The translations under genes were made by a program, and so were the position numbers. A DNA stretch of 61,747 nucleotides, counting the filler, from Hausera hauseri (lineage: Eukaryota): NCBI GenBank assembly GCA_046269625.1. It is 11 parts of 11 records of this genome, joined end to end, with 100 filler letters (N's around TTAATTAATTAA, not from the genome) between each part and the next. Parts side by side here need not be neighbours in the genome. Positions count along the whole stretch, not along the records: positions 10,402 to 15,363 come from JBJURY010377479.1; 10 more parts are not named here. One strand, written 5' to 3'. The notes under the pieces were generated by a model. It was not told the DNA's origin. It saw nothing but the letters and a program-made list of their open reading frames with translations, and did not search any database. This document shows, piece by piece, positions 5,008 to 36,269 of the stretch. Each line of letters opens with the position of its first letter. Position 1 is the stretch's first letter.

Positions 5008-8000
5008 TCAATGCTTTTTGTTCATTTTGCTTTGATTTGACGAATAGGCGGAATTAGTATGATTTATTGAATAAGGAGAGTAAACTTCTGAATATCGCGA
5101 TCCTGGTGTCAGGCTTGGTGAAGTTGGAGAATAACTTGGCGAAGATGCTAAGCTGCTATGTAATGATGAAGAAGCATTAGGCGAATAATTTGGTGATACT
5201 GGAGAGTAACTTTGTGCGCTCAGTGAATAATTTGGTGTTGTTGGTGAATAGTTAGGAGAAGTTGGCGAATAATTCGGGGAAGTGGGTGAAAAATTCTGCG
5301 AAGCTGGTGAATAATTTGGTGAAGTTGGTGAATAATTCGGTGTTGTCGGTGAATAATTTGGAGAAGCTGGTGAAAAGTTCGGAGACGTTGGTGAATAATT
5401 TGGAGAGGCTGGTGAAAAGTTCGGAGACGTTGGTGAATAATTAGGAGAAGAAGGAGAATAGTTTCTTGAAGGAGAAATGGCTGGACTATATGCTGGAGAT
5501 GTTATCGAGTAATTAGGACTTGTTGGAGTATAACCTGGTGAAGTTGGTGTGTATTTCGGAGTTCTTGGTGAATATGCTGGACTAGTTGGTGAATATCCTG
5601 GGCTAGTTGGTGAGTAAGCAGGACTTGTTGGTGAATATCCCGGACTAGTCGGAGAATAAGCCGGACTTGTTGCTGTATATCCTGGACTAGTTGGTGAATA
5701 TGCAGGACTTGTTGGTGAATATCCTGGACTTGTTGGTGAATATGCAGGACTTGTTGGTGAATATCCTGGACTGGTTGGTGAATATCCTGGACTGGTTGGT
5801 GAATATCCTGGACTGGTTGGTGAATATCCTGGACTGGTTGGAGTGTGTCGTGGACTTGCTGAACTGTAGTTCGGACTTGATGGACTATAAGAAAGTGAAG
5901 TCTGCGACTGACGGAAACCAGATGGGGATAAAGGCGATAAAGCCGGACTCGATCCTGCAGAATATGGACTTAATATTGGACTTTGAGGACTGAAACTCGG
6001 AGACATGAATCCATAATCTGGAGTACGAGGACTGAAATAAGACATAGGACTATAACCGCCATAAACAGGCGTTCCTGCATCAGACACGTTACTAGGAGAA
6101 AAAGCACCTCGATAATCGTTGACAGGAGAATATGTTCCAGTAGGTGAACAACTGGACTGACCATACATTGGAGACATATAACCAGTTTGGAACATATTTT
6201 GAGCAAAACCTCCAATTATGTTGATTTGTTGAGCTTCACTGCATTTCTCAAAATCCATCAAAATATCGAAGGCACCTGTTCCTGCTTTAGCTAGCTGACC
6301 TAACATAATATTTTCCGATACTCCTCTCATTGGATCAACTTCAGCATGAGCTCCAGCGGCCTGTAATATATCGACAGTTTCCTCAAATGAACATCGAGCC
6401 AATGGACCAGTGTCTTGTTTATTGATCCCGTGTCTGTCGATAGACATCAAATGACCTTTTACTGTCATAACATCACATAGTAGAGACAGATGTCTTTTAT
6501 TCATATACGCATTATCAAATGATAGTACGTTATTCAATTCTTTCTCTATAGCATTTCGGGCTGCTTCAATTCCAAGTGTTTCGAAAATTTCAACGATGCT
6601 GTTGCACACTGTTGTTTTGGAATTAACATATCTTTCAGCCAATACTTTTTGTAAACATGATCCATCGGTTTCCAAAAATACATCATCCAAATAATTAATA
6701 TTACCTTCTTTATCGAATTCATAAACTTTTATATCTGCTGTCTCCGGTTTGTGGATATAACACTTTGAAATTTGAGGAATACCTTTCAAACTAATTTCGT
6801 CTAGAATCAAATTTTCTATTAGCTTTAAATGATCACATTCCTCCATGTTATGATTTGATTCTTCCTTTGGATCGAAATTATTGTCAGAAGGATTATAAAT
6901 TCGAATCCTCAGAACGAGGTCAGCATTGTCATCCGGATAATGACATATAATTCCGTTACTAAAGTACTCAACAATTTTTTCAGAAACACCGTCAAGAGTA
7001 ACTAGTTTATCTTCGCACTTTTTCATATCTAACTCAATTCGCAACACGTAAGAACCGATTTTTGTTGCATCAAAATCCGGTAACTCATAATATGTTCTTA
7101 CCCAGTCTCTGTCCTTTTCAATCACCGAATTTTCCGGATCGGGATCGTAATAAATTTCCGATGTCGTAGAAATCATACGCAATGTTGTGTGTTCTAACTG
7201 TGATGCAACAACTTTGGCAAATGTTTCATCTATATCACCTTCCTCTCGACTGAGATATATCGTAAGAGATGGAGTCTTTAAATTTTTTGTAACGTTCAAG
7301 ATTTCCTTCAATCGCGGAACACCAAGAGTAATGTTTTTCGCAGATACACCGGCAAAGTGGAATGTGTTCAAGGTCATTTGTGTAGCTGGTTCACCCAAAC
7401 TTTCAGCAGCCAACGCACCAACCATTTCTCCAGGATTAACAAGTGATTTGTCAAATCGGGATTTAATTTCACCGATTATCCATTCAAAAGCCTTTGAATG
7501 TAGCTTGTAGTTCACAATGACTTTTTTACAACACAGTACACTTCGTATCAAACAGCATAATAAATGGGTGGCATTCGTATTGATAATTTTGCTCATTCGA
7601 TCAGATCTACGGTCAACAATTAACTGCGAGCATAATTTTTTGACTTCATTGATTATTTCTAACGGTGAAATTTCAGTTTTTTCGAGCAGATCGATTTTGA
7701 ATAATTTCTGGGCATTTTGGATGAGGCGATAAATATTGCATGGCAGAGGCACTCTACCATTAGTAGTCGGAACGAGAACTTCTCTCATTAGTTTTTGATC
7801 TGCAACTATATGACTCCATTCTGATTCAAGCAACTCACCAATTTGTTTATTGCAATAAATTTCAGATATAGCATCTTTGCTCAAATGTTTATTCAACATA
7901 ATTTCATCTTCTATGCAAAATCTGTACTCGTTCTCTAACTGTCGTTTGTTTAATTTATAAGTCGGAAGAACTTGAAATTCGACAAAAGCTCCATCCAGTC

Positions 8001-10301
8001 CATCTTCTCCATAAAGGAACTGAATGATCTGATCCATTTGATTTCTGACTGTGCCATCATACATTACCATAATCGATTCCATAGCTTTGATCAATCGTCG
8101 TTGTATATATCCAGTTTCTGCGGTCTTTACGGCGGTATCAATGACACCTTCTCTACCACCCATTGCGTGAAAGAAAAATTCAGTCGGTGGCAATCCATCA
8201 GCATATGATCTAGTAACAAATCCTTTGGATTCTGAACCTAAGTCATCCTTATCAAAATGCGGTAATGTTCGTTTTTGAAATCCAAACGGAATACGCTTTC
8301 CTTCGACGTTCTGTTGACCAACTACAGCCATAACCTGGCAGATATTAATACTTGATCCCTTTGCCCCAGAACTGACCATAAGATTGAAATTGTTGTTCTT
8401 CGGTAACTCTTGTGACACTTTACTCCCGAGATCTTTTCGAGCATTGTTTAATAATGCATTGACCTTATATTCCACTGTTTCACGGTAGCTTTTTCCTGGT
8501 TCACTTTTAATATTTCCTGCACAAGCATCTCCAAGTGTTTCTTCCACACTTTTTGTGCATTTATTAATTCTATTTCTGATTTCCTTTTTCAACCTTAAGT
8601 CAATAGTAGCATCAGCGATGCCAATTGTGTGCCCTTCTATCAATAGCCAGTTGTTTATTACGGTCTGTACATTGTTGAAAAACATGCCAACTTCATCCGC
8701 TGAATGTTCTAAAGCCAAGACATGGATCAAAGATCCTTGACCACTTCCTAAGGTCTTTTTGCATAGCATACCGCATATCAATTCACCATCATCAATTATG
8801 ACATTCGTGTCGAATGGAGATATTCTATTAGTCTCTTCATCTACTTTATCGTCATGTGTCGAATGAAATGCCCTGCAATTAACACGGCCTGGAATTATCG
8901 CTGAAAATAATTGTTTTCCTGTCCACAATTGCTGTGGTTTATAAATGGCTGGCCTTGGCATTTTTCCATCCCACGTTGAAAGATGCATCAGCAGGTTCAT
9001 CATTTCAGATTTGGTGAGAAAAACGTCTCTACGGGTCATTTTATTGGACGCAGTTAGTGTATCCTGTACGATACTCATGACTGGCTTGTTACTTTGCGGT
9101 GTAATTATTAACTTTGTAACACGGGCAAGTTCTGATACTTCTGCTTTTGTTTCAAGAGACTGTGGAAAATGTAAATTCATTTCGTCGCCATCAAAATCTG
9201 CGTTATAAGGTGTTGTGACACTGAGGTTCAATCGAAATGTTGAGAAGGGCAAAACTTTGACTCGATGGCACATCATTGACATTTTGTGCAGAGTTGGCTG
9301 TCGATTAAATACGACAATATCATCATTGAGCATATGCCGTTCAACAATGTAGCCGTTTTGTAATCGCACATCTTTCGTATCTGCTCGCCTTTTGAGATCA
9401 ATTCGCTCGCCGTTTTCCCTGATAACAAATGATGCACCAGGATACATTGAGCCATTGTTGACGAGCTGTTGTAAAAATGCACAATTGTAAGGAGTAACTT
9501 TCTCTGGAAAAGTCAAATTTTGTGCGATACTTTTCGGCACACCGACTTGGTCAAGGTTCAAATACGGATCGGCTGTAATAACAGTTCTCGCGGTATAATC
9601 TGTTCTTTTACCCATTAGATTCGACCGTACTCTGCCATGTTTGCCCTTTAGCCTTTGTTTGATACTTTTCAACGGGCGACCCGATTTCTGTATGGCTGTT
9701 GGTAGCACAGGACTCTCATTGTCGAAGTACGTTCCAACGTGAAACTGTAGTTGATCGATTAAGTCTCGAAGCGCGACAGACGCCGCTCCGTTTTTTTCAG
9801 ACACCTTTATTGATTCATTGACCTTTACTATGTCTGTCAAAATATGAGTCAAGTCATCGTGTGCTCGACCATTCTGCATCACTACAGCAGGTCGAACTGC
9901 TAATGGTGGCACCATTAAAACAGTCAGAATCATATTCTCTGGACGAGAATATTTTGGATCAAAACCCAACAACTTACAGTCATCATTGCTTATACGGCTA
10001 AAAATATCGAAAATTTTTTCGGGTAAAAGAATTTCTTTGCCATTCTTTTTCCCATCTTCAATATTAGTTTCGATGTAATAAGTCAGTTGAGTGCGTTTAT
10101 ATTTTGGTTGAAACGCTTCACATTTCATTTGCTTGTTGTCTTTTTCATCATCAACTTCATTTTTTCCTCCTGCAAAACACCTTTTAGTTTTTTTTGCTAA
10201 TTCATATAGGCTTTCAAATCGTTTGCTGGGATTACTCCTTTTCAGAACTTCTTGTACATCTTTATTTTCCATGTTCACCAGCAATGCGGAACATTCATAG
10301 C
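5008..10301 (-). CDS. POLR2A: RNA polymerase II largest subunit, N-terminus cut by contig end, no introns in 5.3 kb
   Basis: NADFDGDEMN catalytic motif, FNRQPTLHKMSMM, bridge helix FFFHAMGGREG.IDTAVKTAETGYIQRRL, trigger loop EPATQMTLNTFHFAGV, C-terminal heptad repeats; frame open up to the gap (CYECSALLV). Confidence 0.98.
5113..5889 (-). repeat. RPB1 CTD 21-bp heptad tandem repeats (about 35 heptads)
   Basis: YSPTSPG/YSPTSPA block followed by YSPTSPN/FSPASPN block. Confidence 0.95.
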
Positions 10302-10401: not shown

Positions 10402-11556
10402 TTTATATCAAAAATACCTTCAATATATAAAGCAACACCGGAATATTGTAACTTATATTATAATCATTCAGCTCACACTTGTTGCGAACCTACGTTCGGA
10501 GTATCCTACAGAATTCAATATGCAATCGGAACAATAGGTCAGTCATATAGAACATACTTTTCATATCCCGGCACGACTCAGTACATTTACCAACCATATT
10601 TTCTTGCCTCATTTTATATTACAATTATGAGAAATGGGCTGTGTGTTACGGCTGAAACAGAAATTTCTATATCTAAATATCAAGCCATAGAATATTGGAT
10701 TGAAAATAAAATCGATGTTATAAAATGCAAACCAGATCATAAGAAACCATATTTTTGTTGCCCCTTTCCATTTAATAAACACTATCAGATATACTACCGA
10801 ACTACAATCAATAGCTATACGTGGTCAACATGGTCAGATGGATCGGAAATAATGGAATGGACCCCACCAGTAACTACAACCATTCCGACTAAAGCAATAA
10901 CTTCTATTACAAAATTACCGATAAAGAAGCCGACCGCAGCTACAAGAATCATTAAGAAATTGGACGTAGTTGTACAGTGAACACCATATTGGCTTATTAT
11001 CACTTTATCAGACTTGAAGAATACGAATGTAAAATTTAAATGCTCCCTTCACAACAGCATGGTTAGTAAAGGCGTGTTGACTCCGGACAAATCAACATCG
11101 GCCTGTATGCTCTTAAAAGCCGACACTAATTATAAGATCGTTATAACGGAGTTTGATGAGGATAGACAAACTCTAAAAATTATTAGAAAAATAGAGAAAA
11201 CGTTACAATTACCGATAATTGTTACGAATACAGTTATAAAAACAACTGTCATGCAGACTCAAGAAGGAACTTTTAATACATATTTCTGGATGGTTATCAT
11301 CCTAGGTATCCTTTTAGCGCTAAAAATTGTATTATTACCAATAATAATCTATTGTTCTAAAGTAAGACGAAGAATGCGCAAGACCCAAGTATTAATACAA
11401 CAATTAAAATTATTAAGGGAGGATTCCCAAAATGACTCTATAAATGATTTAAGCGCGCCTGTTACGAGTAATGAGATAACCGAAAAGAATGCCAACCTTA
11501 AACGGTCAACCCTACCGTCAATGAATGCCGTATTGTGCTTTAAACATAAAAGATGA
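10402..11556 (+). pseudogene. Type I membrane protein ORF (FnIII-like modules, WSTWS motif, Thr/Pro stalk, TM helix), one in-frame TGA at 10978; in env position of an LTR element
   Basis: Frame open from contig start; ORFs 10627..10980 and 11014..11556 are in the same frame; YQIYYRTTINSYTWSTWS, LLKADTNYKIVIT, TM YFWMVIILGILLALKIVLLPIIIYC followed by KVRRRMRK. Confidence 0.6.
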
Positions 11557-11687
11557 GGCCGCAAAATTTTTAGAGACCTACTATACCCTTAAAAAGCACA
11601 ACAAAGTTGCAAAATCCTTAGCGATCAATAAGAATAATTTCTTTCTAAAAAGAATTTCCTTGTTAATATTGATTTACTTCTTTTCAG

Positions 11688-13089
11688 TTCAAGAAGGAAC
11701 AAAGATGGTCGATAGACCAAAGTCATTTTATTACAACATTACCTCGAACCTTAATGCAACTGCTCAGAAAGATTATATTTATTATGGTGAATGCTCCTTC
11801 ATCCCCAATAATCTGAAAGGCCATCTCACAACCCAAAGAAGTGGACTTATTATTCAATTATCAACTGCTTCAGTCACCTTATCTGATCTTATTGATTTAT
11901 CTAACAAAACTACTTCTGTATACATATCGGTAGTCAGGGAAAAACTCCAGTTAAAGAGCAGAACCCATTCAAATGGAATGACGGATACATTAGAGATCAC
12001 GCCATTTACTACAATCAGATTAGATCAACGTTTTTATAAGAACGTCGCCATAATATTGCGATAAATGGTAAACCGTCTCCAACGATTTGTATAGAGGTTA
12101 CCCCGAGGGAAATATTCCCCCAAATAGATTTCAAGAAAGCTCCTGAGTATCCCATTAAGATGCCTGAAGAATTACAGCTAAGACAAGGACAGTCCTTTAT
12201 AAGACTACCAATAATACAAGAAAATGATATCATCATAATAGCCTCTAATAATGCATACTTAATGAAACCGATCCGTTCTAAGGAACAGGCACTTGTGGAA
12301 GTAACTATTATAAACCTAAATGGAAGTGTTATTTACGATCGAATTATTTGCCCATGGGACCGTATAGACAACTATAATTGTCGTTTTACTGGACTAAACG
12401 AAGCCGAAATAATCGGCCAAGCTGATCAGTATCAAGAAGAAAGGCTTATCCGACAACAAATCGTTGGTAAGATAGTCATAGGGATGAACGTGTTTGAGAT
12501 TAACTTACAAGGCCCATTGTTCGAACCCAACGCTATATTGGGAATCAGAGACGTATTCCATCATAAAGAAATAAACCCAGATAGACAACTTACTCAAGCA
12601 CAGATTCTGATGAAGCACAATAATGGAGATTATCCCTACAGAACCAAAGAAAAAGCCCTTGTCATATTAAAAATCTATCAGCTCATAAACGAGTTTCGTA
12701 TTAAATCAGAAAGTACTTTACCTTCGACATTTTCACCAATGGAAACCCAAGAACTAGCAACAGTCGACCTAATCGAACCACTATCTATTAGTGAGGTAAC
12801 AGACCAAATAGCTTCATCTTTGTCATCAATCCCGTTTAGCAATAATTCGGCAGTCCCTATAATAATGGATTCGACAAAAAAATCCAAGAAAAGATCTTAT
12901 CATGGGACAGAAACCATTACCCTTAAAAGTAAAATCAAAAATAAAGGGTTATGGCTAAACATTCACTCTGCCAATTACCAGTACTCAAATGGTACCTTAA
13001 AAACTTATCCCCTCGCTCTGAGGACAGCGTTGTCTAAGGAGGGAGATGTTGATGCTAATGCCATTGACATCGATGCACATTCTGACTAA
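11688..13089 (+). pseudogene. ORF with degenerate DEDDh exonuclease domain (ISG20/REXO4-like), frameshift near 12050
   Basis: ALVEVTIINLNGSVIYDRIICPWDRIDNYNCRFTGL...IRQQIVGKIVIGMN...IRDVF matches the LARVSIVN..G.V.YD.YV.P...V.DY.T..SGI...G.ILVGH...IRDT pattern; acceptor-like TTTACTTCTTTTCAG ends 11687; reads through PPT into LTR. Confidence 0.65.
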
Positions 13090-13236
13090 CGTACATTCTG
13101 ATCAACAAAATACGATGCACATTTTGATAAATTGATCGAGTATGTACAAATATTTTTCTGACTCTTATGGCATGCAGTAATAAATAAAGAATGAAATTGA
13201 GAGAAGTTGTCATTCAATAATAAAATTTACACTACA
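13036..13236 (+). mobile_element. Polypurine tract and short (190-bp) 3' LTR
   Basis: GAGGACAGCGTTGTCT-AAGGAGGGAGA then TGTTG (13047) ... AATAAA ... CTACA (13236). Confidence 0.7.
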
Positions 13237-13492
13237 AAAATTATTGTTTCTGGAAATAGAATTATAAAATGTAATACAGTAAAAAATAAGTGTGGTAAAC
13301 ATGTGCAATACATAATGAAAAATCAATATGCATTTATTGTGTAAGATTTTCAATTAATTTTCTGAGTCATTTTCACTGAAATGCGGGTACCAGTGGATTC
13401 TCGTCTTCCCTAACGTGGCGCAATAAAAATTGTGACATATCAACATGGCATTTGTTAAATAACCAGAAACAGTGGACAGTCGATTATTAGAC

Positions 13493-14571
13493 ATGCATTA
13501 TTCCACAGCAATTCTGTTGATTCTGTCATTCAGTTATACTGGAACGACTGCGGAAATTAAAGTTCCTGAGTTGACATCACAGACATTTGACGAATTTATC
13601 CAAAACCATGCATTAGTCATGTTCTATACTCCATGGTGTCCCCATTGTCAAGAAGCCAAACCGCATTTCTTTACATGCGCCGCAAAAATGGCAGATATCG
13701 ATAAGAAGTATTTTTTTGGAGTTGTCAATTGTGATAATTCCGAAAATTTCGGTATATTTTGATGTATTGTGACATTTTATTAATATTTATTTTTTAATTA
13801 ATGTATGTTGATATTATATTTCTTATAAACTGTTAACTGATAAATCAATAATCATCAATAATATCCATGAGAAAGTTAACTAAACTAAATAGTTTTCCTG
13901 CATTAGTTTAAAGCAGTTATTCGAAGGATAATCGATAATTGTTCATTTTCTTATATAATTTGAACACCAGAATATGAATACAAAATATACAGGGTGTTCT
14001 TAAATTGACACGAAAGAAAATTCGAATAAATTCAGTAGTTTAAACAGATGTAGTTTTTGTTATATAGTCACATTCATAAATTGATTGACTTTATTCTATT
14101 GCTAATGAAATGATAAAAATTATTATTTTTATATTACTTACTAATTGTTAATTAGGTCTGTGTCGGAAGCAAAAAATCGAAGGCTATCCAACCATAAATC
14201 TCTACCAACCTAAACATGCGGCTGTGACATTTGGAGCAGAGCCAACAGAAGAAAATCTCATGGGGTTTATTAAAAATCCCGAAGACTATATTCTTGGAAA
14301 GGAAGCAACAGAAGAAGTAAGAACCGGTATTGTTGTCAAATAACTTCATCTGAATAGATAAAGGATACGGCATTGAAACATACCAAGTATTTGAACGGTC
14401 TAAATTTTAGTGAATCTGTGGAACATATTCTGCACGCTTTAGTATTTTTCTATGCACCATGGTGTTCTCATTGTCAAGAAACCAAACCGGTTATTGACGA
14501 AGTCGCGGAACAATTAATGTCCAAGGACAGAGCCATATTTGCTGTCAATTGTGAAGATGAAAATAGTAGAA
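13493..14571 (+). CDS. Protein disulfide isomerase family gene (signal peptide + two thioredoxin domains), 3' part not resolved
   Basis: Exons 13493-13751, 14156-14316, 14358-14571 with GT-AG introns (404 and 41 nt) give an open frame: FYTPWCPHC, IEGYPTI, FYAPWCSHC; both domains have a phase-1 intron after VNC. Confidence 0.85.
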
Positions 14572-15796
14572 GTAAATTTATTTGGGAAATATCTTTTAAA
14601 ATATTATTTGTCAATTAAATATATTGGCAACATACAATGCCGTTAATTTTACACAATAACGCCTTGAGTTACTCGTACCTTTTTGTGGAAAATTTTTCGG
14701 TTATTGTGAAGAATTCGATATCAGTTATCTCAAAATTTTGATTGAAAATTATATTATATTTATTTTTTCGCTTGTTTAAATGTATCATTTAAATGTATTT
14801 TGAAAATTAATCTTACAGATCTTTTACAAAATATCCCCAAAGCCCTGGTTCATATAATCCCGAAAATATTCACGGTTCATAAAAACATTTTCACGATTCA
14901 CTTGCTCGGCAAAAGGTCTTTTTTGCTTGTGTGACTTTTTCAAGTTCTACATGTTCTACAAGTACAAAGTTTATCATTTTGCACTTATTCACTTTTCCCC
15001 CGAACATTGTTTTCAACAATTTGTGTCGTATTATTAATCAGAATAAAATTTTAGAACTTGTAGAACTTGTGAAACTCCGATTAGCAGGAAGGTACTGTTC
15101 CTTTGTAGAGCAATTAGTACTCATACTTTCTCCGCCAACTTACCCAGATCATTGTCAACTTTGACCGTCTATCAGTATTCTAGATATCGTTTTGTATGGT
15201 AGGGGAATCTCCGATACAGTAATTTCACGATTAACTGGAACTTCTTGTGCATTTCCTTTTTATGATAATCATGTGGGGAAGTCTGATCATCATATAAATA
15301 AAATCATTCGGCGGAGCCCGCTCGTACCTTTTTGCATGGAACGTACCAAAAGCATAACACTTANNNNNNNNNNNNNNNNNNNNNNNNNNNNNNNNNNNNN
15401 NNNNNNNTTAATTAATTAANNNNNNNNNNNNNNNNNNNNNNNNNNNNNNNNNNNNNNNNNNNNGTACAAATGTGAATACTGAAACAAAAGCTGATAAATT
15501 TTACGTTGTTGAAATGTTGTCAGTTCTCAATTTTTTGTTTCTTGTGCTTTGTAAGTATTATTTGTTGTTCCTGATGATAAATAGACCGTATTGAGATTGT
15601 AGTAAATGGATTTAGTGGATAATGATTATTTTTGTTTAAAAATATATACAATTATCATTGTATTTACCTTTGTTCAAACGTATAATTATTGTAATTATTC
15701 CATTCATGGAAATACGCGATATCTCAGGCTTAATCATGAAACAACAATGGTGTCAGAAGTCCATATGGAAAGATATGTTAACTATTGGATTTATAG

Positions 15797-16800
15797 ACAT
15801 GTTTTCTGTTGAAACATGTTCAAATGTAATTACAATTGTTGCTATTCAACCAAAGGTCAATACTATCTCAAGAGTAGCAGCAGTTTTTTACGCTGGATCA
15901 CGATTTGAAAATTATCAAACAAAAGGATTTAATCATTTGTTACGATGTTGTATTGGATTGTCGAATAATAATTTGTCTGCTATTCATGTTACTAGACACA
16001 TACAGCAAATGGGTGCCACAATTCGTTGTGTTGGTTCTCGTGAAACTTTAGTGTACATATTAGATTACCCACATGATTTACAAACGAAAGCTATTGAACT
16101 GTTATCCAATCTCACAACTAGACAGCACTTCTATCTTTGGGAATTAAAAGATGTAAAACCGTTGATGGAAGTTGATCTTCAGCTGTTGAACAGTCGGGAT
16201 TTTCAGACATTATGCTCGGAAATGTTACATAAAGCTGCATTTCGTGATGGTCTTGGAAATTCTCTTTTCTTACGAATTGAAGATTGGAAATTGGAATTAA
16301 TTGAAGATTTTCTCTCAAATACCTTTACAGCAAATAAAAGTATGCTGGTTGGTATATCCGTTAAACCAGATGATTTGATGAAACTGGCAACAATGTTCAA
16401 TATCAGACCTCTAAAAGATTCGACCATTCCATCGAGTATTTTTCGTGGAGGTTATTGATTAGCGGAAAGAATCTTCTAATTGTCATTATTTAGGTGAAAT
16501 ACGAAGAGAATTGCCTTTGGATTATGCTCATGTTTTATTGGCTTGGGAGGCTCCTGGATTTTCTGTCACATGCAATTGATTCTGGAGTTATCTACGGATA
16601 AAATGGAACGCTGGTGATTATGATTTGGTGCGAAAAGTCACGAAAAATGAGGATATTTCGAATAATTAGACGGAAAACCGTTTGTTCTATTCCTATAGTG
16701 ACAAAGGATTGTTTGGATTCTCTCTAACTGGCGGTAAAGAAGTTATGAGTGAACTTGTGACATCAATGTTTAAACATTTTGTTGCAATTGGCAAAAATGA
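15797..16800 (+). pseudogene. UQCRC2: Cytochrome bc1 core protein 2 (M16 peptidase fold), decayed 3' half
   Basis: AGSRFEN...GFNHLLR, RHIQQMGATI...SRETLVY, F.LWELKD, EMLHKAAFRDGLGNSLF, FRGG/GEIRRE across a 43-nt intron (16451-16493), YSYSDKGLFG; stops and deletions after 16580. Confidence 0.8.
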
Positions 16801-16930
16801 AATTAAAAATTGCGTGCAGGATTTCAGTTGTTTGAATTTCGAAATCACAAGATTTCTCCAAAGCACTGTTTATTGGTATTCGATAGATTACTGCGTCAAC
16901 GGCGTATGTTTTATTGGATAAAACAGTTGT

Positions 16931-17980
16931 TTGACATTGGAGGATTCGACTGTTACTCGTGCGAACGTTGGTTGTGAATACGAGCTTGTTATTTTGAATC
17001 AAGAATTAAAATTTAAGTGTTTTACATATGAGATTCAGCTACTTAACAATATTAACGATATCGACACGAAACCGCAATTATGTACGTTAGGGATCATTAT
17101 TATTGAAAGTAAACATTTCAAAAACTACGAAGACATTTTCAAGTTTCTTATCAGTCTTTCATATCCGAAAAAACTGAATTTTCTATCAAATTATATTGCA
17201 AAACAATTGCAGATTCAAAAATATGAAACTCAACCAATAGTCCTTACGGTTGAGGACAATTGTGTTTTTGTCAATACGATAAAGGTACTCCAACTCACAT
17301 CTTTAAACTTAAACAATATTTCTCAAGAAGATTATTTGTCCTTCAATATGTTTAACTGCAAATCAGAAATTGCCGACATTTGTAATTCTATGAGAAACCA
17401 TAACACCGTATCAACTCATACCGTCTTTTCTCAATCTCCTTTTACGAAGAGACGAAATATAAAACCAGTCCCAGTTGCCAAGGATACTTATTATTTTGTT
17501 CCTTTTGTATGTCTAAAAGACAAATCATTGATTGTTATTCATCGTTGTCAAGACTTTCCTAGAGTAAATGACCATCAGAATTCAGAACAAATCGAAGAAA
17601 AATATATTGGGAATGAGTTGAACAAAGAAGATAACTTCAATTCCTCGTGTGAAGGAAATAAAATTGACAAATGCCAGAATTATATCAAAGCCGTTTTTGT
17701 TAAATCTCTTTTGACGCTTCCAGATATTTATTTTCCAAACAAACTTGGCACTTGCTTTTGCAGTAATTGTCGATCAGTAAATGTAGGATTATGGATAAAC
17801 AATTCGGTCAACGTTTCTGAGTTGTTGATAAAAGGCGAGCCGGCTAAAGAATTTAGGTTACCCTTAGGATGGACAAAGTTTAATTTACGGGTGAAGAAAG
17901 ATGCACGGTCTTGTTCATCTTTATGGCATTTAGCCTATCTGACACTACCTGTTGGATTGTTGCATCGGTTTTTGACAGCA
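16931..17980 (+). CDS. NEURL4-like fragment (NHR-like region + start of C-terminal ART-like domain), 5' part of chimeric 565-aa ORF
   Basis: CFCSNC...KGEPAKEFRLPLGWTKFNLRV...WHLAY resembles NEURL4 CYCESC...[21 protein letters not shown]...WHMAYHG. Confidence 0.65.
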
Positions 17981-17999
17981 CCGGACACCAATAGCAGTG

Positions 18000-18545
18000 A
18001 TGTTTATAATGACATTCGATCCCATTTTATTTTGTTACTATCCTATTCTCGTACTGATGAATTAAGTCGTTGGTTCATTAATCAAGAAGTTGATTTGTTT
18101 AAATACCGCTTTTCTAAACACAAAAAAGATGTCATTAAACAATTCCTTAGCGACAACAAAATTGACATGGAAGTTGTCAACGATCTTGTTGTCAAAGCTA
18201 AACATTCAAATACAAACAAGGTGTTATACAGAGTTAAATTCCGAATGGTTATCGATTTGATTAAATCACGCAAAGTCTATTTGAATAAAGGATTTGCATA
18301 TATTACCGAAGATGAACTCGTCCATTTTGTAGCAACGGAATTCCGCAAGCACATGTCTCATAATATATCAATTTTGCGTCTGAATTGGTCACAAGTCGAA
18401 GAAGACAGTCGTTTGAATTTCTTGTCCACTATTGACAAGAAGTACATTGGTAAAGATTATTCTCAGACGGAAAAAATCGAAAAAATTACCGCTAATCAAA
18501 TACCGACATTGAATAAAATTCCTTTTCCTCCGTGCACGCAACTGC
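18000..18545 (+). CDS. PRIM2: DNA primase large subunit internal fragment, 3' part of chimeric ORF 16931..18628
   Basis: SHFILLLSY...ELSRWFINQEVDLFKYRF, DLIKSRKVYLNKGFAYI, EEDSRL, YIGKDYS, FPPC; stops at first Fe-S cysteine. Confidence 0.85.
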
Positions 18546-18820
18546 TGCAACAGCAGCAAAAGCTAATGTCAACCAGTGAGGTTATCCATATTAGACTGCA
18601 GAGTGGAGCGAGTAAAAAGATCGATTAAACTTCTGTCAAAAGGCTCCATGCAGACAAGATTCGATGAAAACCAGACGACATATAACGAACTGGTGGGTTT
18701 GTTCAGAGTCATTGAATACGCAGATCGCTCGTAGTACGACACGACGTGAGAAAGTCGATCTGAAGTGCCAACAATGCAAAACGATACTGCCAACCGCGGA
18801 GAAACCAGCACACGATGAGG

Positions 18821-25800: not shown

Positions 25801-27980
25801 ATGCAAATGTTATATATATTGTGTACAGAAAAAAATTATCTTTATAATGTTCAATTTGTGTGGGGTAAAGTTTATCTGGAAAGAAAAACCGTGATTGAAG
25901 AAGGTAAGTGTTCGTGAAATCTGAAATATAGTGATATGATTAATCGATACAGCACGACCCTTGTGGGCATTCATGGGAGCAGAAAAGTTAGAGAAAAGAG
26001 GTATGTATGTGTACACGTATTTGTGTGTGTATACTTGTGTACAAAAAAGAACATAGATGAGAATTAATAAAATTGATTATATATAATTTTAAAATTTTTG
26101 ATATAATATTAACTTTGGAATGGTTATTATATAATCCTACTTTTAGGAATAAAAAGATGAAAGCGAAGAAAATGGATAACAAAGCTATTTCATTCAATTG
26201 CAACGACAAATTAGATGAATTAGATAAAAGGGGAATGATGCCAAATCACAGTGAAATACAGAATGGAATTTATGGAATTTGTGTTGGAGACTTAACGTTA
26301 AACAGACAAATTCTAAGGTTGATTAAAATGAACCTGGTCTCTGGAAACTCAATATTAAGTGGAACTATCATAAATCCTTTGATGAAATCGAATTTTCCAC
26401 CTCGCTGTTCATCATGGATTACAGAAGATATAATATCTGATGTTATGGTGCAAGATATCAAAAAGCATCGGCCATTGTTGTCTATGAATGAAAATGATAT
26501 GATAAAACCATCTATTCAATATTGGGATTTTATCACACGACAACCTATCTTCAATAATTTGACAACGGATCATCGGCTCACCGACGAAGAAGTGGATTAT
26601 TTTCTCGTGTCTAAAACGTTCTCTCGTATCTTATCTTGTTTAAAGTCCAGTCTCATAGGTGTTATTAGAAGTATCATTACTAGTCAGTTATTGCAAAAAT
26701 CTCTGTCACATTGTCAATATTCATTGTGTAATTTGAAGGGATCGGACTTTTGGGTTGATGAACTTTTCACAAGAGGTTGTCGTAATTCTCGTCATTCTGG
26801 GAAAAAACTTGATATCAAAACTAAATCAAGTAATGTTCCTGTGATCTTAGTTCAAGGTTGCCTTAATAAGATTATTAGTTATTATTCTTGTTTTTCTGGT
26901 CCCGTAGATGTTAGTATGGGTCGTGTTGTAGAGGGGATTGTCTGCACACTCGAAAGGGTTAAAACAAATGAGTGGGAAAATAAAGTTCAAGAAAAATGTT
27001 TTAAAGGGCTGATGATAAGTAGTCTCCAATATAAGTTCTTCTAAGGATTAAAGGGTTCAATGGTAAAGGGAGAATTAATTGAGAAAATTTACGAATCTAA
27101 TTCAAAAGTATATGGGCCCAGGAGAAAAATTATAAATGTGACTTCATGTTTTAATACGGATAACACATGGATGGATAAAGCTGTTTATTCTAGGGATGGT
27201 GTACGTGATGATAACATGAATTTACTATGTAAATGCTATATAGATATTCCACCTTCCAGCCTGGTGTAGCACTCCTTTTCTGTATGTTCCTTATGGTGAC
27301 ATCTTGCACAGCTAAGGTTTACGCAATTTCGTCTGATGTGTCCTAGCTGACCACATCCGCAGCATCTTATTGGTTTCCTTTCGGAACACTGCCTGCTTAT
27401 GTGTCCTTCTTTTCCGCATCCAAAGCATTTCATTGGTCTCGGTCCGGTGCAAGATATGCTCGTATGTCCTTCTTTCTGGCATGTTCAACACTTTAATTTA
27501 CTATTTGATGTTCTAGTTGGGGTCGGGGTGATTCCAGGAACGGGTTTCCTAATATTTTGTGCTGCCACTTCCTGGTAGCTTCTTTTACCTATCCCCGGAT
27601 ACTCCTTGACAGTGTTGACTTCTTCTATCTTAATCTTTACCTCGTGTATCTTCCGTTTTTTTGCCTTTATTGTTTCCGCGTATCGCTTGTCACTGAGGCA
27701 TATTTCTCTTCTCATCTCTCTATTGTTACAACTTTAGAACAATAGTTCTTCTTTTAGAACCTAACGTGAAAGATTGTGTTTCATGACTTTATCCAGAAGT
27801 TTCTCGATTGTCTCAAAGTAAGCCTCCGGTTCTGTTCCATTTATTCTGTACTCGAGCGCTTCTTTTAGATCTTCGCATAGCGTTGAGGGTCATGCGAAAG
27901 CCCTCCGTAGTCGGTTTTGGTATCCAGTTATCTTCGCATCTACTGCCTCGTATTTTTCTAGTGCATCTTCTTCCAAGAGG
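22828..27980 (-). mobile_element. Decayed Ty3/gypsy element, family A (gag with CCHC knuckles, protease, RT, RNase H, integrase start), interrupted by insert 25676-27251
   Basis: LLDTGAGVNVI, IDLGNAYYQV, RMPFG, YLDDILI, DADAS; paralog of 36940-40256. Confidence 0.95.
25676..27251 (+). mobile_element. 1576-bp insert with TG...CA ends and CCTTC target-site duplication; probable endogenous negative-strand RNA virus fragment (L protein N-terminal region)
   Basis: CCTTC at 25671-25675 and 27252-27256; empty site at ~39055-39075; ORF 26158-27251 (one stop at 27042) with SILSGTIINP, DVSMGR, YKFF.GL.G.MVKGELI in the order seen in Mononegavirales/chuvirus L N-termini. Confidence 0.6.
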
Positions 27981-28212: not shown

Positions 28213-31079
28213 TGGTCTGACTGCCTCGGCTAGGTCAGAGGTACTGAGAGCCAAATGTAAACTACACGTATCCATTTCACATAGCTGAAAGTCGATCCTA
28301 TCAACATAGTTATCTATAAAATCGTAATAAAACTCTAACATTCTCAACTTTGCATCTTGATTTACGAAAAAACCTATTTGTAACGGGAGATTCCAAACTA
28401 TTTTTTCCTTCTGACTAATTTCTGTCATTTTTTAAATAGAGGCTATAACCGATTCGGTAGTGAGTGTCTTCACCCTTACTGTAAGATACGTCAGAGTGTT
28501 CGGCTATATTGGTAAAAGTTTTGCCATAAGTGGCATTCCCCAACAACTTCATCGACTTGCTGATAATGGCATATACGTTGTCGAGATCTGCCAGTCGCCG
28601 AGCATCCGAGACCTTTTACCAACCTCTTTGAAACATGCCTTTAAATGGTACTCAATGACCCAGTACACGTTTGTGACTTGTAGTCCGTGATTGATATACC
28701 ACCGTAATAACAAATTCACCAGGAGAATCTTTTCACTTTGTAACTCCCCACCAGCGTGTGGCGAGGACTAGTCAAGAGTTTGTTCTCTATCGTATTTACG
28801 CATAAAATCCCCTATGTCGGCTCTAGACGCTTCGACGATTTTGAATATCGGAGTCATTTCAGGCAAATGAATCTTTAATTCTTTGGGGACGTGTATATCA
28901 CACTCTACCAAGCCAAAACATTTCCGGTCCTGTACAGCTTTCAGAATTTCTTCTTTGGTCGGTGACCGAAGGAAGGTGATTGCGCCTTAAAGGGCATAGT
29001 GCGCAGAAAAGCCTTTATTGCTAGCTTTGATTTTTTTCAGAGCATTCCACTCAAATTCCCACATCACCACGACTTCAGCGAGTTTAGATATTTGCTCGTG
29101 AACCGAGGTTCTTTTGATTTTTTTAAATTATCTATTTATTCCTAACAGAAATATCCCTTATTTTCCTTTATCTTATACGTGGCTAGATACTCGCTATAAC
29201 TAAAACCCTACGCTAGGTAATTACACAAATCTAAAAATTTCACATTTGGCGTAGAAAAGCACATAAAGTTATTGTTTCTTTTAACTATAAAATTACGAGG
29301 CTTGGCAGAAGCTGCAGCATATCTAGCCTCGTTCTTTTTGGGGTTTCCCATCGTCACTGCTTTGAGAGGCGTGTGCAGTTATTGGGAATGGTTTAATCAC
29401 GTTAATATCATATTTTCCCGAGTTGAATCCTATGACTGGGAGCTGGTACAAATAAAACGTCAATTTGTCTAGAAGCGTTCTATCTTCTAATTTGCCCAAG
29501 ACTTTAATCACTTCCTCAAATTGTTTCTTTAACAGCTTAAAAGCCGTCTCTGAAATTTCTTGGAGCGTCTCCGTTTTTAAGAAGCAAATTGGATCCGTCA
29601 TTCCAGACACGTTAGAAAGTACAGAGATAACGGGACGTGTTTTGTGATAAATTTCGTCGCACCAGCCTCGGGAGGCAAATCTGTCTAGTGGAAACAAAAT
29701 AATAGTCGCCCGATAGGGGTACACAAAGTTTGTGTCATCTAATATTCCGAGTAGATCGATTTCCTCCCAAATAGTCTCGTGTGGAATGTAAACACCACCC
29801 TTATAGACATCGACAGGTTTTCTCCCAATACAAGTCTCTTCGTGTCGCATCAACATTTGGTGTTTGCCGCATTTGCTATATGAAAAGGCATGCGGCGCTT
29901 GATCAGTGTCCGAAATATGGATGAAATGGTTCCTATACACTAATAAATATAGTGTTTTTATATATTCACCGCTACATCTGAGTTTCGGGATGAGTACCTC
30001 TTGTTGGTCAAACTCAAAAATATCTATATGTATTTGGAAACGTTCTTATAATTTGGGAAGATCTGTTAAACTAACCCCAGGGAAACTGTCCAGTGGTTGG
30101 AACTCCTGGTAATCCGTGTTGGAGGCGTTGTTGTGTGCTTCGTCTAGTGTCCTTTGTTTTTTTACCTCTAAAAACTGCTAAACATCAAAAGAAACATAGA
30201 TTGTCTGTATAGAGCCTTAAGCTTGAGTCATATTGTAGTGTAAAAATGGCTGGATTTCGTGTAATATTTTCGAGTATTTGGTCTAGAGTGCATCCTATCG
30301 GGTATTCGTTTAAGTGTATACACAAAAACTAGATGATGGAATTGCTTCTACGGCGTATTTTGTGTCTGGCCTACTGTGTAATGAAAACTAAGTGGATCGT
30401 CTGGTTCTAAAGCCCTATCGAAATCTACAAAGTCTGCCCTTTTGTTAATGAGTTTAGGTGTGTCTAAGACAGCTGCATTGTTTGATGATGCGTGGTAAAA
30501 CCGTAGGTCCCCTGTCTCCCTGTGCCTAAGAAAAAAATGGTGGCTGTAGATAATATTAAACTTACGTATTTGACGTTTAAATATGTTGTCTAAGAGACAG
30601 GTTCAGTCCAAACGGTGATCAGTATCTGGTCTGTGGAAATATGTGTAAGTGGAAATGTGTTTGACAGTGTTTCTGTGTGTTTTAATAGACGCCCAATTGT
30701 CCATGTACTTCTGTCTGAGATAATCAGCCAAATGATTTAATGAATCAAAGTCAGAAACATTTTTCTTTGACTTCTCAAGTTTTGGTTTTTTTCCTTAAGA
30801 AAACACAGTCCCCTCATTCGAAGGAGTAGATCTCGGTTCTTCTCTTGAGAAGGAGCAGATCACACACTTGAGAGATGATTCAACGGCTTTTTATCGGCCG
30901 GTTGAACGGGAGCAGGTCTCTTTAGCGAGTCACTGTGTTCCTTTTGGATATGTGTTTTTAAATTTCGACCGCACACATCGCAGGTATGTTATTTGCAGGG
31001 ATGTGTAGATTCAGTATGTCGACACATATTTGTAGCGCGGGTAAAGATTCGCTCACATTTACCACAAGTATGTCTTTGT
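28213..31079 (-). pseudogene. Polinton protein-primed family B DNA polymerase with N-terminal C2H2 zinc fingers; fragmented
   Basis: LPVIGFNSGKYDINVIK (ExoII), VVMWEFEW, MKLLGNATYGKT (motif B), QIGFFV...AKLRMLEFYYDF, CEMDTCSL (motif C); HTCGKCERIFTRATNMCRHTESTH near 31000-31075. Confidence 0.9.
29120..29320 (+). mobile_element. LTR end + primer-binding-site relic interrupting pPolB
   Basis: ...TTTCACA (29244) TT TGGCGTAGAAAAGC; coincides with a large deletion in pPolB. Confidence 0.4.
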
Positions 31080-34683: not shown

Positions 34684-34748
34684 GACGACTACTAATCAAA
34701 TTAAACACCACAAGTGTTTTACTGAATCAAAGTAATATACTCTGACCA

Positions 34749-35207: not shown

Positions 35208-35649
35208 CGTTTTCGAAAGTATGAAATGCATTATCTGCAAACGCATGTACAGTTTTCGTTGAATGGTCTGGTGTTGTTGACCACACCCAAGTACAGTTAT
35301 CGTGTAAAGCAGGCATCAAGTGAAAATGCTGCGAAACTTGGTGATGCTTTAAGTCAATTAAACATGGACTTAAAGTTGAAAGAACCGGCTTTACAAAAGT
35401 AATATGTCGTTTTACCGGCCGCAAAANNNNNNNNNNTAAAATGTCTAATGTGCCCGATGACTTAAAGTTGTCGACTCAACATTAAATTGCAGGCATACAA
35501 AGAAAAGGTGTCAAAAGCCCGATTAGGTGTTTATCCGAAGCACTTTTTGATTATCAATAAATGTTGTTGTTGTTGTTGTTTTGATTTTCTTCTTCTTCAA
35601 CAATGAGTATAAATATACATGTGTAATGGGCTTTTCATTAATAATGATA

Positions 35650-36116
35650 ATGAATTATGTAAAAATTATTTTGACGGATAAAAGTGCAACTGTACCGAAA
35701 CGTGTTACGGCAAGCAGTGCGGGCTACGATGTGTTTTCCAATGTCAATACGACAATTCTGGATAGCACAATCAAATGCATAACGACTGGGATTCGATTGG
35801 CGATTCCACCCAGTTACTATGGCCAACTTTTATCGAAAAGAGGACTGGCAAAACTCGGACTGCCGCTTGGGAGCGGTGGTGTCATTGGTTCAGACTTTCG
35901 TGGTGAAATTAAGGTGTTGTTGGAAAAACTATCCGGGCTATTGTATGATATTGCGAAAGGCAGTGCATTTGTACAAATCGTTTTTCTTCGATGTGAAGAG
36001 GCGGAATTTAGTGTAATGTCACCGGAACAATGGGATAGTTCTGTGTCAATGAAGCAACTCGAAATGAACGCAAAGAATTTGGCTTTGGCGATACGGACAA
36101 AGCCACCTATGTTTAG
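35650..36116 (+). pseudogene. Trimeric dUTPase (Polinton-borne), frameshift before motif 5
   Basis: SAGYD, GQLLSKRGLA, GVIGSDFRGEI, FVQ; alternative frame gives NERKEFGFGDTDKATYV* ending 36116. Confidence 0.85.
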
Positions 36117-36269
36117 TGATTGTGATAATAAGAGTAATAATAATAGTTAGTTGTTTTTTGTGTTATAAACAAAAAGTGATTCTGTGCATGATAATTAATG
36201 CAGACAGCATTTACAGATATTGAAACTTTTCAAGATTATGTCCGGTAGATTATAAAGGAATTATGAGTT

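Follow-up and report, generated by a model that had tools for sequence, protein, structure and literature searches.

A WSxWS-bearing, possibly receptor-like surface protein gene at the 3' end of a high-copy, likely LTR retroelement of Hausera hauseri

Poxviruses and herpesviruses encode cytokine-receptor decoys, and Latran (Eye transformer) is a short Domeless antagonist; for all of these, homology to host receptors is clear and function has been tested. We know of no cytokine-receptor decoy originating from an LTR retroelement. A search of mostly freely accessible literature returned no work combining 'LTR retrotransposon' with 'WSXWS', and the works returned described extra transmembrane (TM) and DEDDy ORFs in LTR elements but no WSxWS, FnIII, receptor-like or ISG20-like cargo; such a family could still be catalogued in Repbase, Dfam or the element tables of PMC13524379. 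In the accessible text of that article, the words 'fibronectin' and 'exonuclease' have 0 occurrences. The bdelloid elements Juno and Vesta carry a non-env ORF3 with a DEDDy exonuclease, GDSL genes and small TM ORFs, with a dUTPase domain occurring in the same elements (PMC5408684, available sections).

Here, we describe a gene (ORF1) located in a window of 61,747 nt (the whole stretch of DNA analysed) from H. hauseri assembly GCA_046269625.1. The window is a chain of ~5-kb contigs whose joints are N44-TTAATTAATTAA-N44 spacers (11 spacers, from 10302 to 56879), and genes on either side of a spacer are not linked. The contig with the receptor-like gene spans 10402-15363 (4962 nt); because its edge lies at 10402, the N-terminus of ORF1, along with any signal peptide, is missing. 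We favour, with a rough probability of 0.45, a reading in which the ORF1 product sits on the cell surface, neither fuses membranes nor signals, and acts as a decoy, with modules 1-2 as the likely binding site for a host ligand or receptor.

Other contigs of the window hold a mixed gene content. An intronless gene for the largest subunit of RNA polymerase II (RPB1), with heptad repeats and best PDB matches to animal-type RPB1, occupies 5008-10301 (-) and points to a host that is likely an animal; its linkage to ORF1 was ruled out, RPB1 being on a different contig. Another contig carries an intronless M16 peptidase (15640-16458) and, within a 568-aa frame (16922-18628), a piece of primase large subunit. 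A dUTPase at 35551-36150 (+) (PF00692, E 8.9e-16), flanked by orphan frames at 34746 and 36267, is possibly part of an endogenous DNA-virus piece. Two frames, 29323-30045 (-) and 26061-27044 (+), had no Pfam matches, and one stretch of the former may resemble Polinton-type DNA polymerase B. Finally, a GC-rich contig contains an uninterrupted 1089-aa pol frame (RT, RNase H and integrase) at 58153-61422 (+), in which no similarity to the element studied here was found.

The ORF1 region comprises the following features:
10402-11556 (+): ORF1 frame; 384 residues with one in-frame stop, by translation
10402-10977 (+): ORF1 up to the stop, truncated on its 5' side at the contig edge
10402-10587 (+): module 1, C-terminal half only, with C-x10-CC and C-x8-Y-x-I; probably corresponds to the second half of a beta-sandwich; approximate boundaries
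10588-10866 (+): module 2, with C-x9-CC, C-x8-Y-x-I-x-x-R and WSTWS, by motif scan; likely FnIII-like
10822-10836 (+): WSTWS motif, aa 141-145, by motif scan
10867-10956 (+): Thr/Pro-rich stalk, 47% S/T/P
10957-11211 (+): module 3, spanning the stop, with C-x8-Y-x-I inside LKADTNYKIV; likely FnIII-like; approximate boundaries
10978-10980 (+): in-frame TGA breaking the present copy, by translation
11281-11355 (+): single TM helix, by hydrophobicity; AlphaFold pLDDT 82-95 in the TM part only
11356-11556 (+): cytoplasmic tail, 66 aa, basic after the TM helix

Translation and motif scanning thus recovered the architecture described in the first-pass annotation, namely two Cys modules, a WSTWS motif, a Thr/Pro stalk, the LKADTNYKIV strand and one TM helix. 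The Cys motifs read C16-x10-CC and C109-x9-CC, and F-x3-Y-x-I-x-Y follows each of them. Three instances of C-x8-Y-x-I, starting at C27, C119 and C235, suggest three related modules; three instances at any one Cys-to-Tyr spacing from 5 to 10 were seen in 46 of 200,000 shuffles, for a pattern picked after inspection. Direct similarity between modules 1 and 2 is weak, with 189 of 5000 shuffles scoring as well, and the other module pairs stand at 892 and 3119 of 5000. The WSxWS pattern arose in 64 of 200,000 shuffles of aa 1-290 and is present once in the 123,490 six-frame residues of the window. Preceding it is Y-x-I-x-x-R, with an Arg-to-Trp distance of 8. CxW is absent from the part of ORF1 present, which begins only partway into module 1, and the C-x9/10-CC of ORF1 is a different motif from the C-x9/10-C-x-W-x26/32-C-x10/15-C of class I receptors.

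The predicted topology is that of a single-pass protein. In a 19-aa Kyte-Doolittle scan the best mean was 3.08 at aa 298, with no window elsewhere exceeding 1.2, and the ectodomain present contains 9 Cys in its 290 residues. The sole RxxR of the 384 aa lies at aa 323, on the cytoplasmic side of the TM helix, and the motif scan found neither an RxxR nor a second hydrophobic stretch in the ectodomain present. The original observation that a furin site plus fusion peptide could not be recognised consequently stands for the 384 aa available, with a single hydrophobic segment among them, although a fusion loop could lie in the missing N-terminus. No PxP or PxxP was found within the first 25 aa of the tail, and there are 0 Tyr in its 66 aa; signalling through JAK/STAT via this tail is unlikely because Box1-like prolines and Tyr are both absent.

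Copies of the element were surveyed in one public sequencing run (X1, contigs only), whose contigs were aligned at 80% likeness. This run is not independent of the window because the flank was matched without differences, and it may be the window's own sample. Across 10700-11010, 242 X1 contigs aligned, 218 of them less than 95% alike, and no indels were present among the 40 of 50 variant rows listed. Among these same rows, silent changes in module 2 amounted to 10 of 20 (5.0 expected, p = 0.014), whereas the stalk showed no excess (7 of 20, 6.4 expected). One listed variant, at a depth of ~700, falls in WSTWS; it is silent, and the motif is thus kept in other copies. The selection check suggested at the outset accordingly returned a silent excess in module 2, and we regard this as moderate evidence, given that the variant rows are not independent, that module 2, with its WSTWS, is under purifying selection among copies.

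The present copy itself is a decayed 3' end of a high-copy repeat. Its near-fixed differences from other copies were silent in 5 of 29 cases (among 40 of 547 variant rows listed for the whole contig), a proportion fitting a copy that drifts without selection. The in-frame stop at 10978-10980 is therefore more likely damage than programmed read-through, read-through having been listed in the first-pass annotation as a point to confirm; it was not among the variant rows listed (40 of 547 for the contig and 40 of 50 for 10700-11010).

Under the preferred decoy reading, ORF1 would encode a single-pass surface protein built from three or more related beta-sandwich modules, likely of FnIII type, of which the WSxWS-bearing module pair would bind a host ligand or receptor. 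The product would be a decoy that does not signal, and not a fusogen. The gene may have arisen by capture of a host cytokine-receptor-like gene and later duplication within it, and would presumably be expressed from a subgenomic RNA.

The same architecture could instead belong to an attachment or cell-contact protein, displayed on particles or protrusions and aiding cell-to-cell passage without a classical Env, with WSxWS serving as a structural ladder only. We consider this unlikely, if still the strongest of the alternatives. ORF1 sits at the expected env position, and coverage of the element peaks over it; a stabilising role of WSxWS is possible (PMC7378365, available text); and Drosophila LTR elements show envelope-independent transfer via a small TM protein (PMC11952523, available text). 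Proteins of this sORF2 type are short, though, compared with the frame of at least 384 aa found here, and adhesion alone does not deliver a capsid.

Downstream of ORF1, the contig continues with a cargo region and an LTR-like end:
11673-11687 (+): pyrimidine tract followed by AG (AG at 11687); from sequence, a possible splice acceptor, with the ORF2 ATG 17 nt further on
11705-12064 (+): ORF2, 119 aa
12040-13089 (+): ORF3, in a different reading frame from ORF2 and sharing 25 nt with it; ISG20/ISG20L2-like DEDDh domain from ~12280
13036-13046 (+): polypurine tract (PPT), directly before TG, from sequence
13047-13236 (+): probable 3' LTR, TGTTG...CTACA, 190 nt, with AATAAA at 13179 and 13219; right end inferred from a drop in depth

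A total of 1719 X1 contigs align to the 4962-nt contig. Depth, which does not equate to copy number, reached 430-1410 over ORF1 against 5 in the flank (86-282x), the deepest in the element; it was 26-381 over ORF2, ORF3 and the PPT, and 22 (~4x flank) over the LTR, returning to 5 from bin 13224-13389 on. This contrast, together with the sharp edge, indicates a dispersed family ending at the LTR-like end, and the element is a high-copy repeat that is likely an LTR retroelement. Beyond it, single-copy DNA ~230 nt past the LTR-like end contains protein-disulfide-isomerase-like pieces with two thioredoxin domains (13463-14618, +), and a second, unrelated high-depth repeat (depth 1208 and 254) lies on the same contig at 14884-15215.

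According to the first-pass annotation, ORF1 occupies the env slot of an LTR element, directly upstream of a second cargo ORF, a PPT and an LTR. The PPT and LTR-like end were confirmed, as was the position of ORF1 ahead of the cargo, but the cargo proved to be two overlapping frames, and the contig (10402-15363) contains no gag-pol. A second LTR is likewise absent from the contig and from the rest of the window, and the env slot is therefore a putative position.

ORF2 and ORF3 may be one gene, broken in the present copy. ORF2 has a faint dUTPase-like pattern that is not significant (E 0.09; 27 of 500 shuffles), and a further search gave no match; its assignment as GerE was dismissed, the Pfam row being below the cut-off. 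ORF3 matched ISG20 (E 1.4e-5) and ISG20L2 (E 3.1e-5), with a further search giving E 3.8e-6, while yielding no Pfam match and no near-length relative at E ≤ 0.001. Its motif I position was extrapolated from the ISG20 alignment and the ISG20 residue numbering; no Asp or Glu occurs at that expected position (aa 64-81), and ORF3 is likely an inactive nuclease, because acidic residues are lacking there. In the proposed mechanism, this ISG20-like, likely inactive nuclease would be the second accessory gene of the same cassette. In one X1 contig (depth 84), 686 nt of ORF2 and ORF3 are missing (11860-12547), and some copies may therefore lack or replace this cargo.

That skipping contig, along with the absence of gag-pol and the modest depth of the LTR bin relative to ORF1, would also suit an element that is bounded by LTRs but non-autonomous, or some other endogenous viral piece present in many copies, carrying host-derived genes. 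We judge this improbable: an LTR end accounts well for the PPT directly before TG, the AATAAA signals and the abrupt fall in depth, and the conserved frame of ORF1 and the selection acting on it argue against a passive passenger.

Homology and fold searches were carried out for ORF1 in several collections. We found no homologues among near-length and shorter proteins, no relatives among 1.84 billion protein representatives, and none in metagenome and viral contigs. Comparison with PDB sequences gave chance rows only, as did plasmids (2 rows), and NCBIfam gave only TM-driven rows below the cut-off; in Pfam, ORF1 matched neither fn3 nor any Env family. ORF1 and ORF3 are thus without close relatives in the large protein collections searched, and hence represent an unsampled family, whatever their function.

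AlphaFold modelling of the whole frame, with X at the break, returned a mean pLDDT of 41.7, with an ectodomain that is almost all beta and confidence for the TM helix only; module 2 alone reached a mean of 38.0. Foldseek with these low-confidence models gave nothing at E ≤ 0.001, and its rows carry no weight because the models are unusable outside the TM helix. Against a profile of 30 bacterial FnIII domains (built without a positive control, and not a cytokine-receptor profile), the three modules ranked at 192, 44 and 83 of 500 shuffles; in hhalign against the bacterial FnIII profile they ranked at 39, 6 and 13 of 100. In an Atlas feature comparison of aa 1-192, the top two matches were fn3 clusters scoring 0.77, with low recognition, and 8 of the 10 best named matches came from one family or clan, whereas module 3 received no assignment; a score of 0.77 is within the range reachable by shuffled proteins. 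An FnIII fold of the ORF1 modules is accordingly a prediction from motif spacing and this weak Atlas lead (0.77). The initial description of ORF1 as cytokine-receptor-like and FnIII-bearing was in this way sustained in its non-random WSxWS, whereas the FnIII profile stayed at chance and the models at pLDDT 41.7 and 38.0.

Alternatively, ORF1 may represent the C-terminal portion of a genuine Env that has diverged strongly. A candidate would be a Bel/Pao element's class II protein (phlebovirus-like Gn/Gc), in which a domain III with FN3 topology comes before the stem and TM helix. LTRs starting with TGTT are common in Bel/Pao, and the LTR here starts in the same way; the N-terminus of ORF1 is missing; and the top viral Foldseek rows were bunyavirus-type glycoproteins (best E 1e-3), albeit with TM-scores of 0.09-0.13 and rmsd ≥ 28 on an unusable model. 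The Gc protein of Atlas virus shows this arrangement, with an FN3-topology domain III followed by the stem and TM helix (PMC9094657, available text). Nevertheless, 9 Cys in 290 ectodomain residues contrast with 30 in Atlas Gc, a single domain III is hard to reconcile with three repeated modules interrupted by a Thr/Pro stalk, and no Pfam Env family was matched, making a diverged Env quite improbable. Least probable of all is that an orphan, beta-rich membrane protein with a different fold shows WSxWS and an FnIII look by chance: the blank profile and structure tests, the picking of patterns after inspection and an Atlas score within reach of shuffled proteins would allow it, but the rarity of the motif, its matching upstream spacing and its conservation among copies speak against it.

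If the fold and a gag-pol link hold, the decoy reading would describe an LTR element carrying receptor mimicry, and would offer a handle on the role of non-fusogenic 'ORF3' genes, be it in blocking host signalling or in mediating cell contact. A more far-reaching version, which we put forward as speculative and doubtful, is that of an invertebrate endogenous-retrovirus-like family whose env has been replaced by an immune-modulating cassette, in which a decoy captured from a class I cytokine-receptor-like gene, with WSxWS but without a JAK box, is paired with an ISG20-like nuclease that has lost catalysis, selection maintaining the cassette in many copies.

In layout, the element resembles the bdelloid elements, in which additional genes follow pol and precede the 3' LTR, among them one with a DEDD-superfamily domain and others for TM proteins of no known env homology. 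It differs in that the bdelloid exonuclease is DEDDy with intact catalytic residues, while the domain here is ISG20/DEDDh-like and likely inactive, and in that the TM proteins of the bdelloid elements measure 210-230 aa and contain RxxR or coiled coils, while ORF1 is longer and bears WSxWS (PMC5408684, available sections). With the Env proteins of invertebrate LTR elements (F-type, gB-type and phlebovirus-like Gc), ORF1 shares the 3' position, a type I anchor and a Cys-containing ectodomain, but the part present has no furin site, fusion peptide, heptad region or family match (PMC13524379 and PMC9094657, as far as their available text goes), and far fewer Cys than Gc-type Env (PMC9094657, available text).

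Class I cytokine receptors (gp130/Domeless, PRLR, IL-11R and CRLF3) resemble ORF1 in being single-pass proteins whose second module ends in WSxWS with Y-x-hydrophobic-x-x-R ahead of it, and group 2 receptors likewise have a further module before the TM helix (PMC1963337, available text). The Arg-to-Trp distance in human PRLR is 8, as in ORF1, and human IL-11R has the same five letters, WSTWS (PMC1963337 supplement, available part). The textbook cytokine-receptor homology domain (CHD), on the other hand, has its Cys pairs in the first fold, whereas module 2 of ORF1 has three to four Cys (PMC1963337, available text). Unlike these receptors, ORF1 has a mucin-like stalk between modules 2 and 3, lacks CxW in the part present as well as Box1 and Tyr in the tail, shows no sequence-level match to them and sits in a repeat family. 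We do not file ORF1 as a class I cytokine receptor, because Box1 was not found and neither FnIII nor the first-domain Cys motif was established. With the viral decoys and Latran, it has in common a receptor-like ectodomain that lacks a signalling tail.
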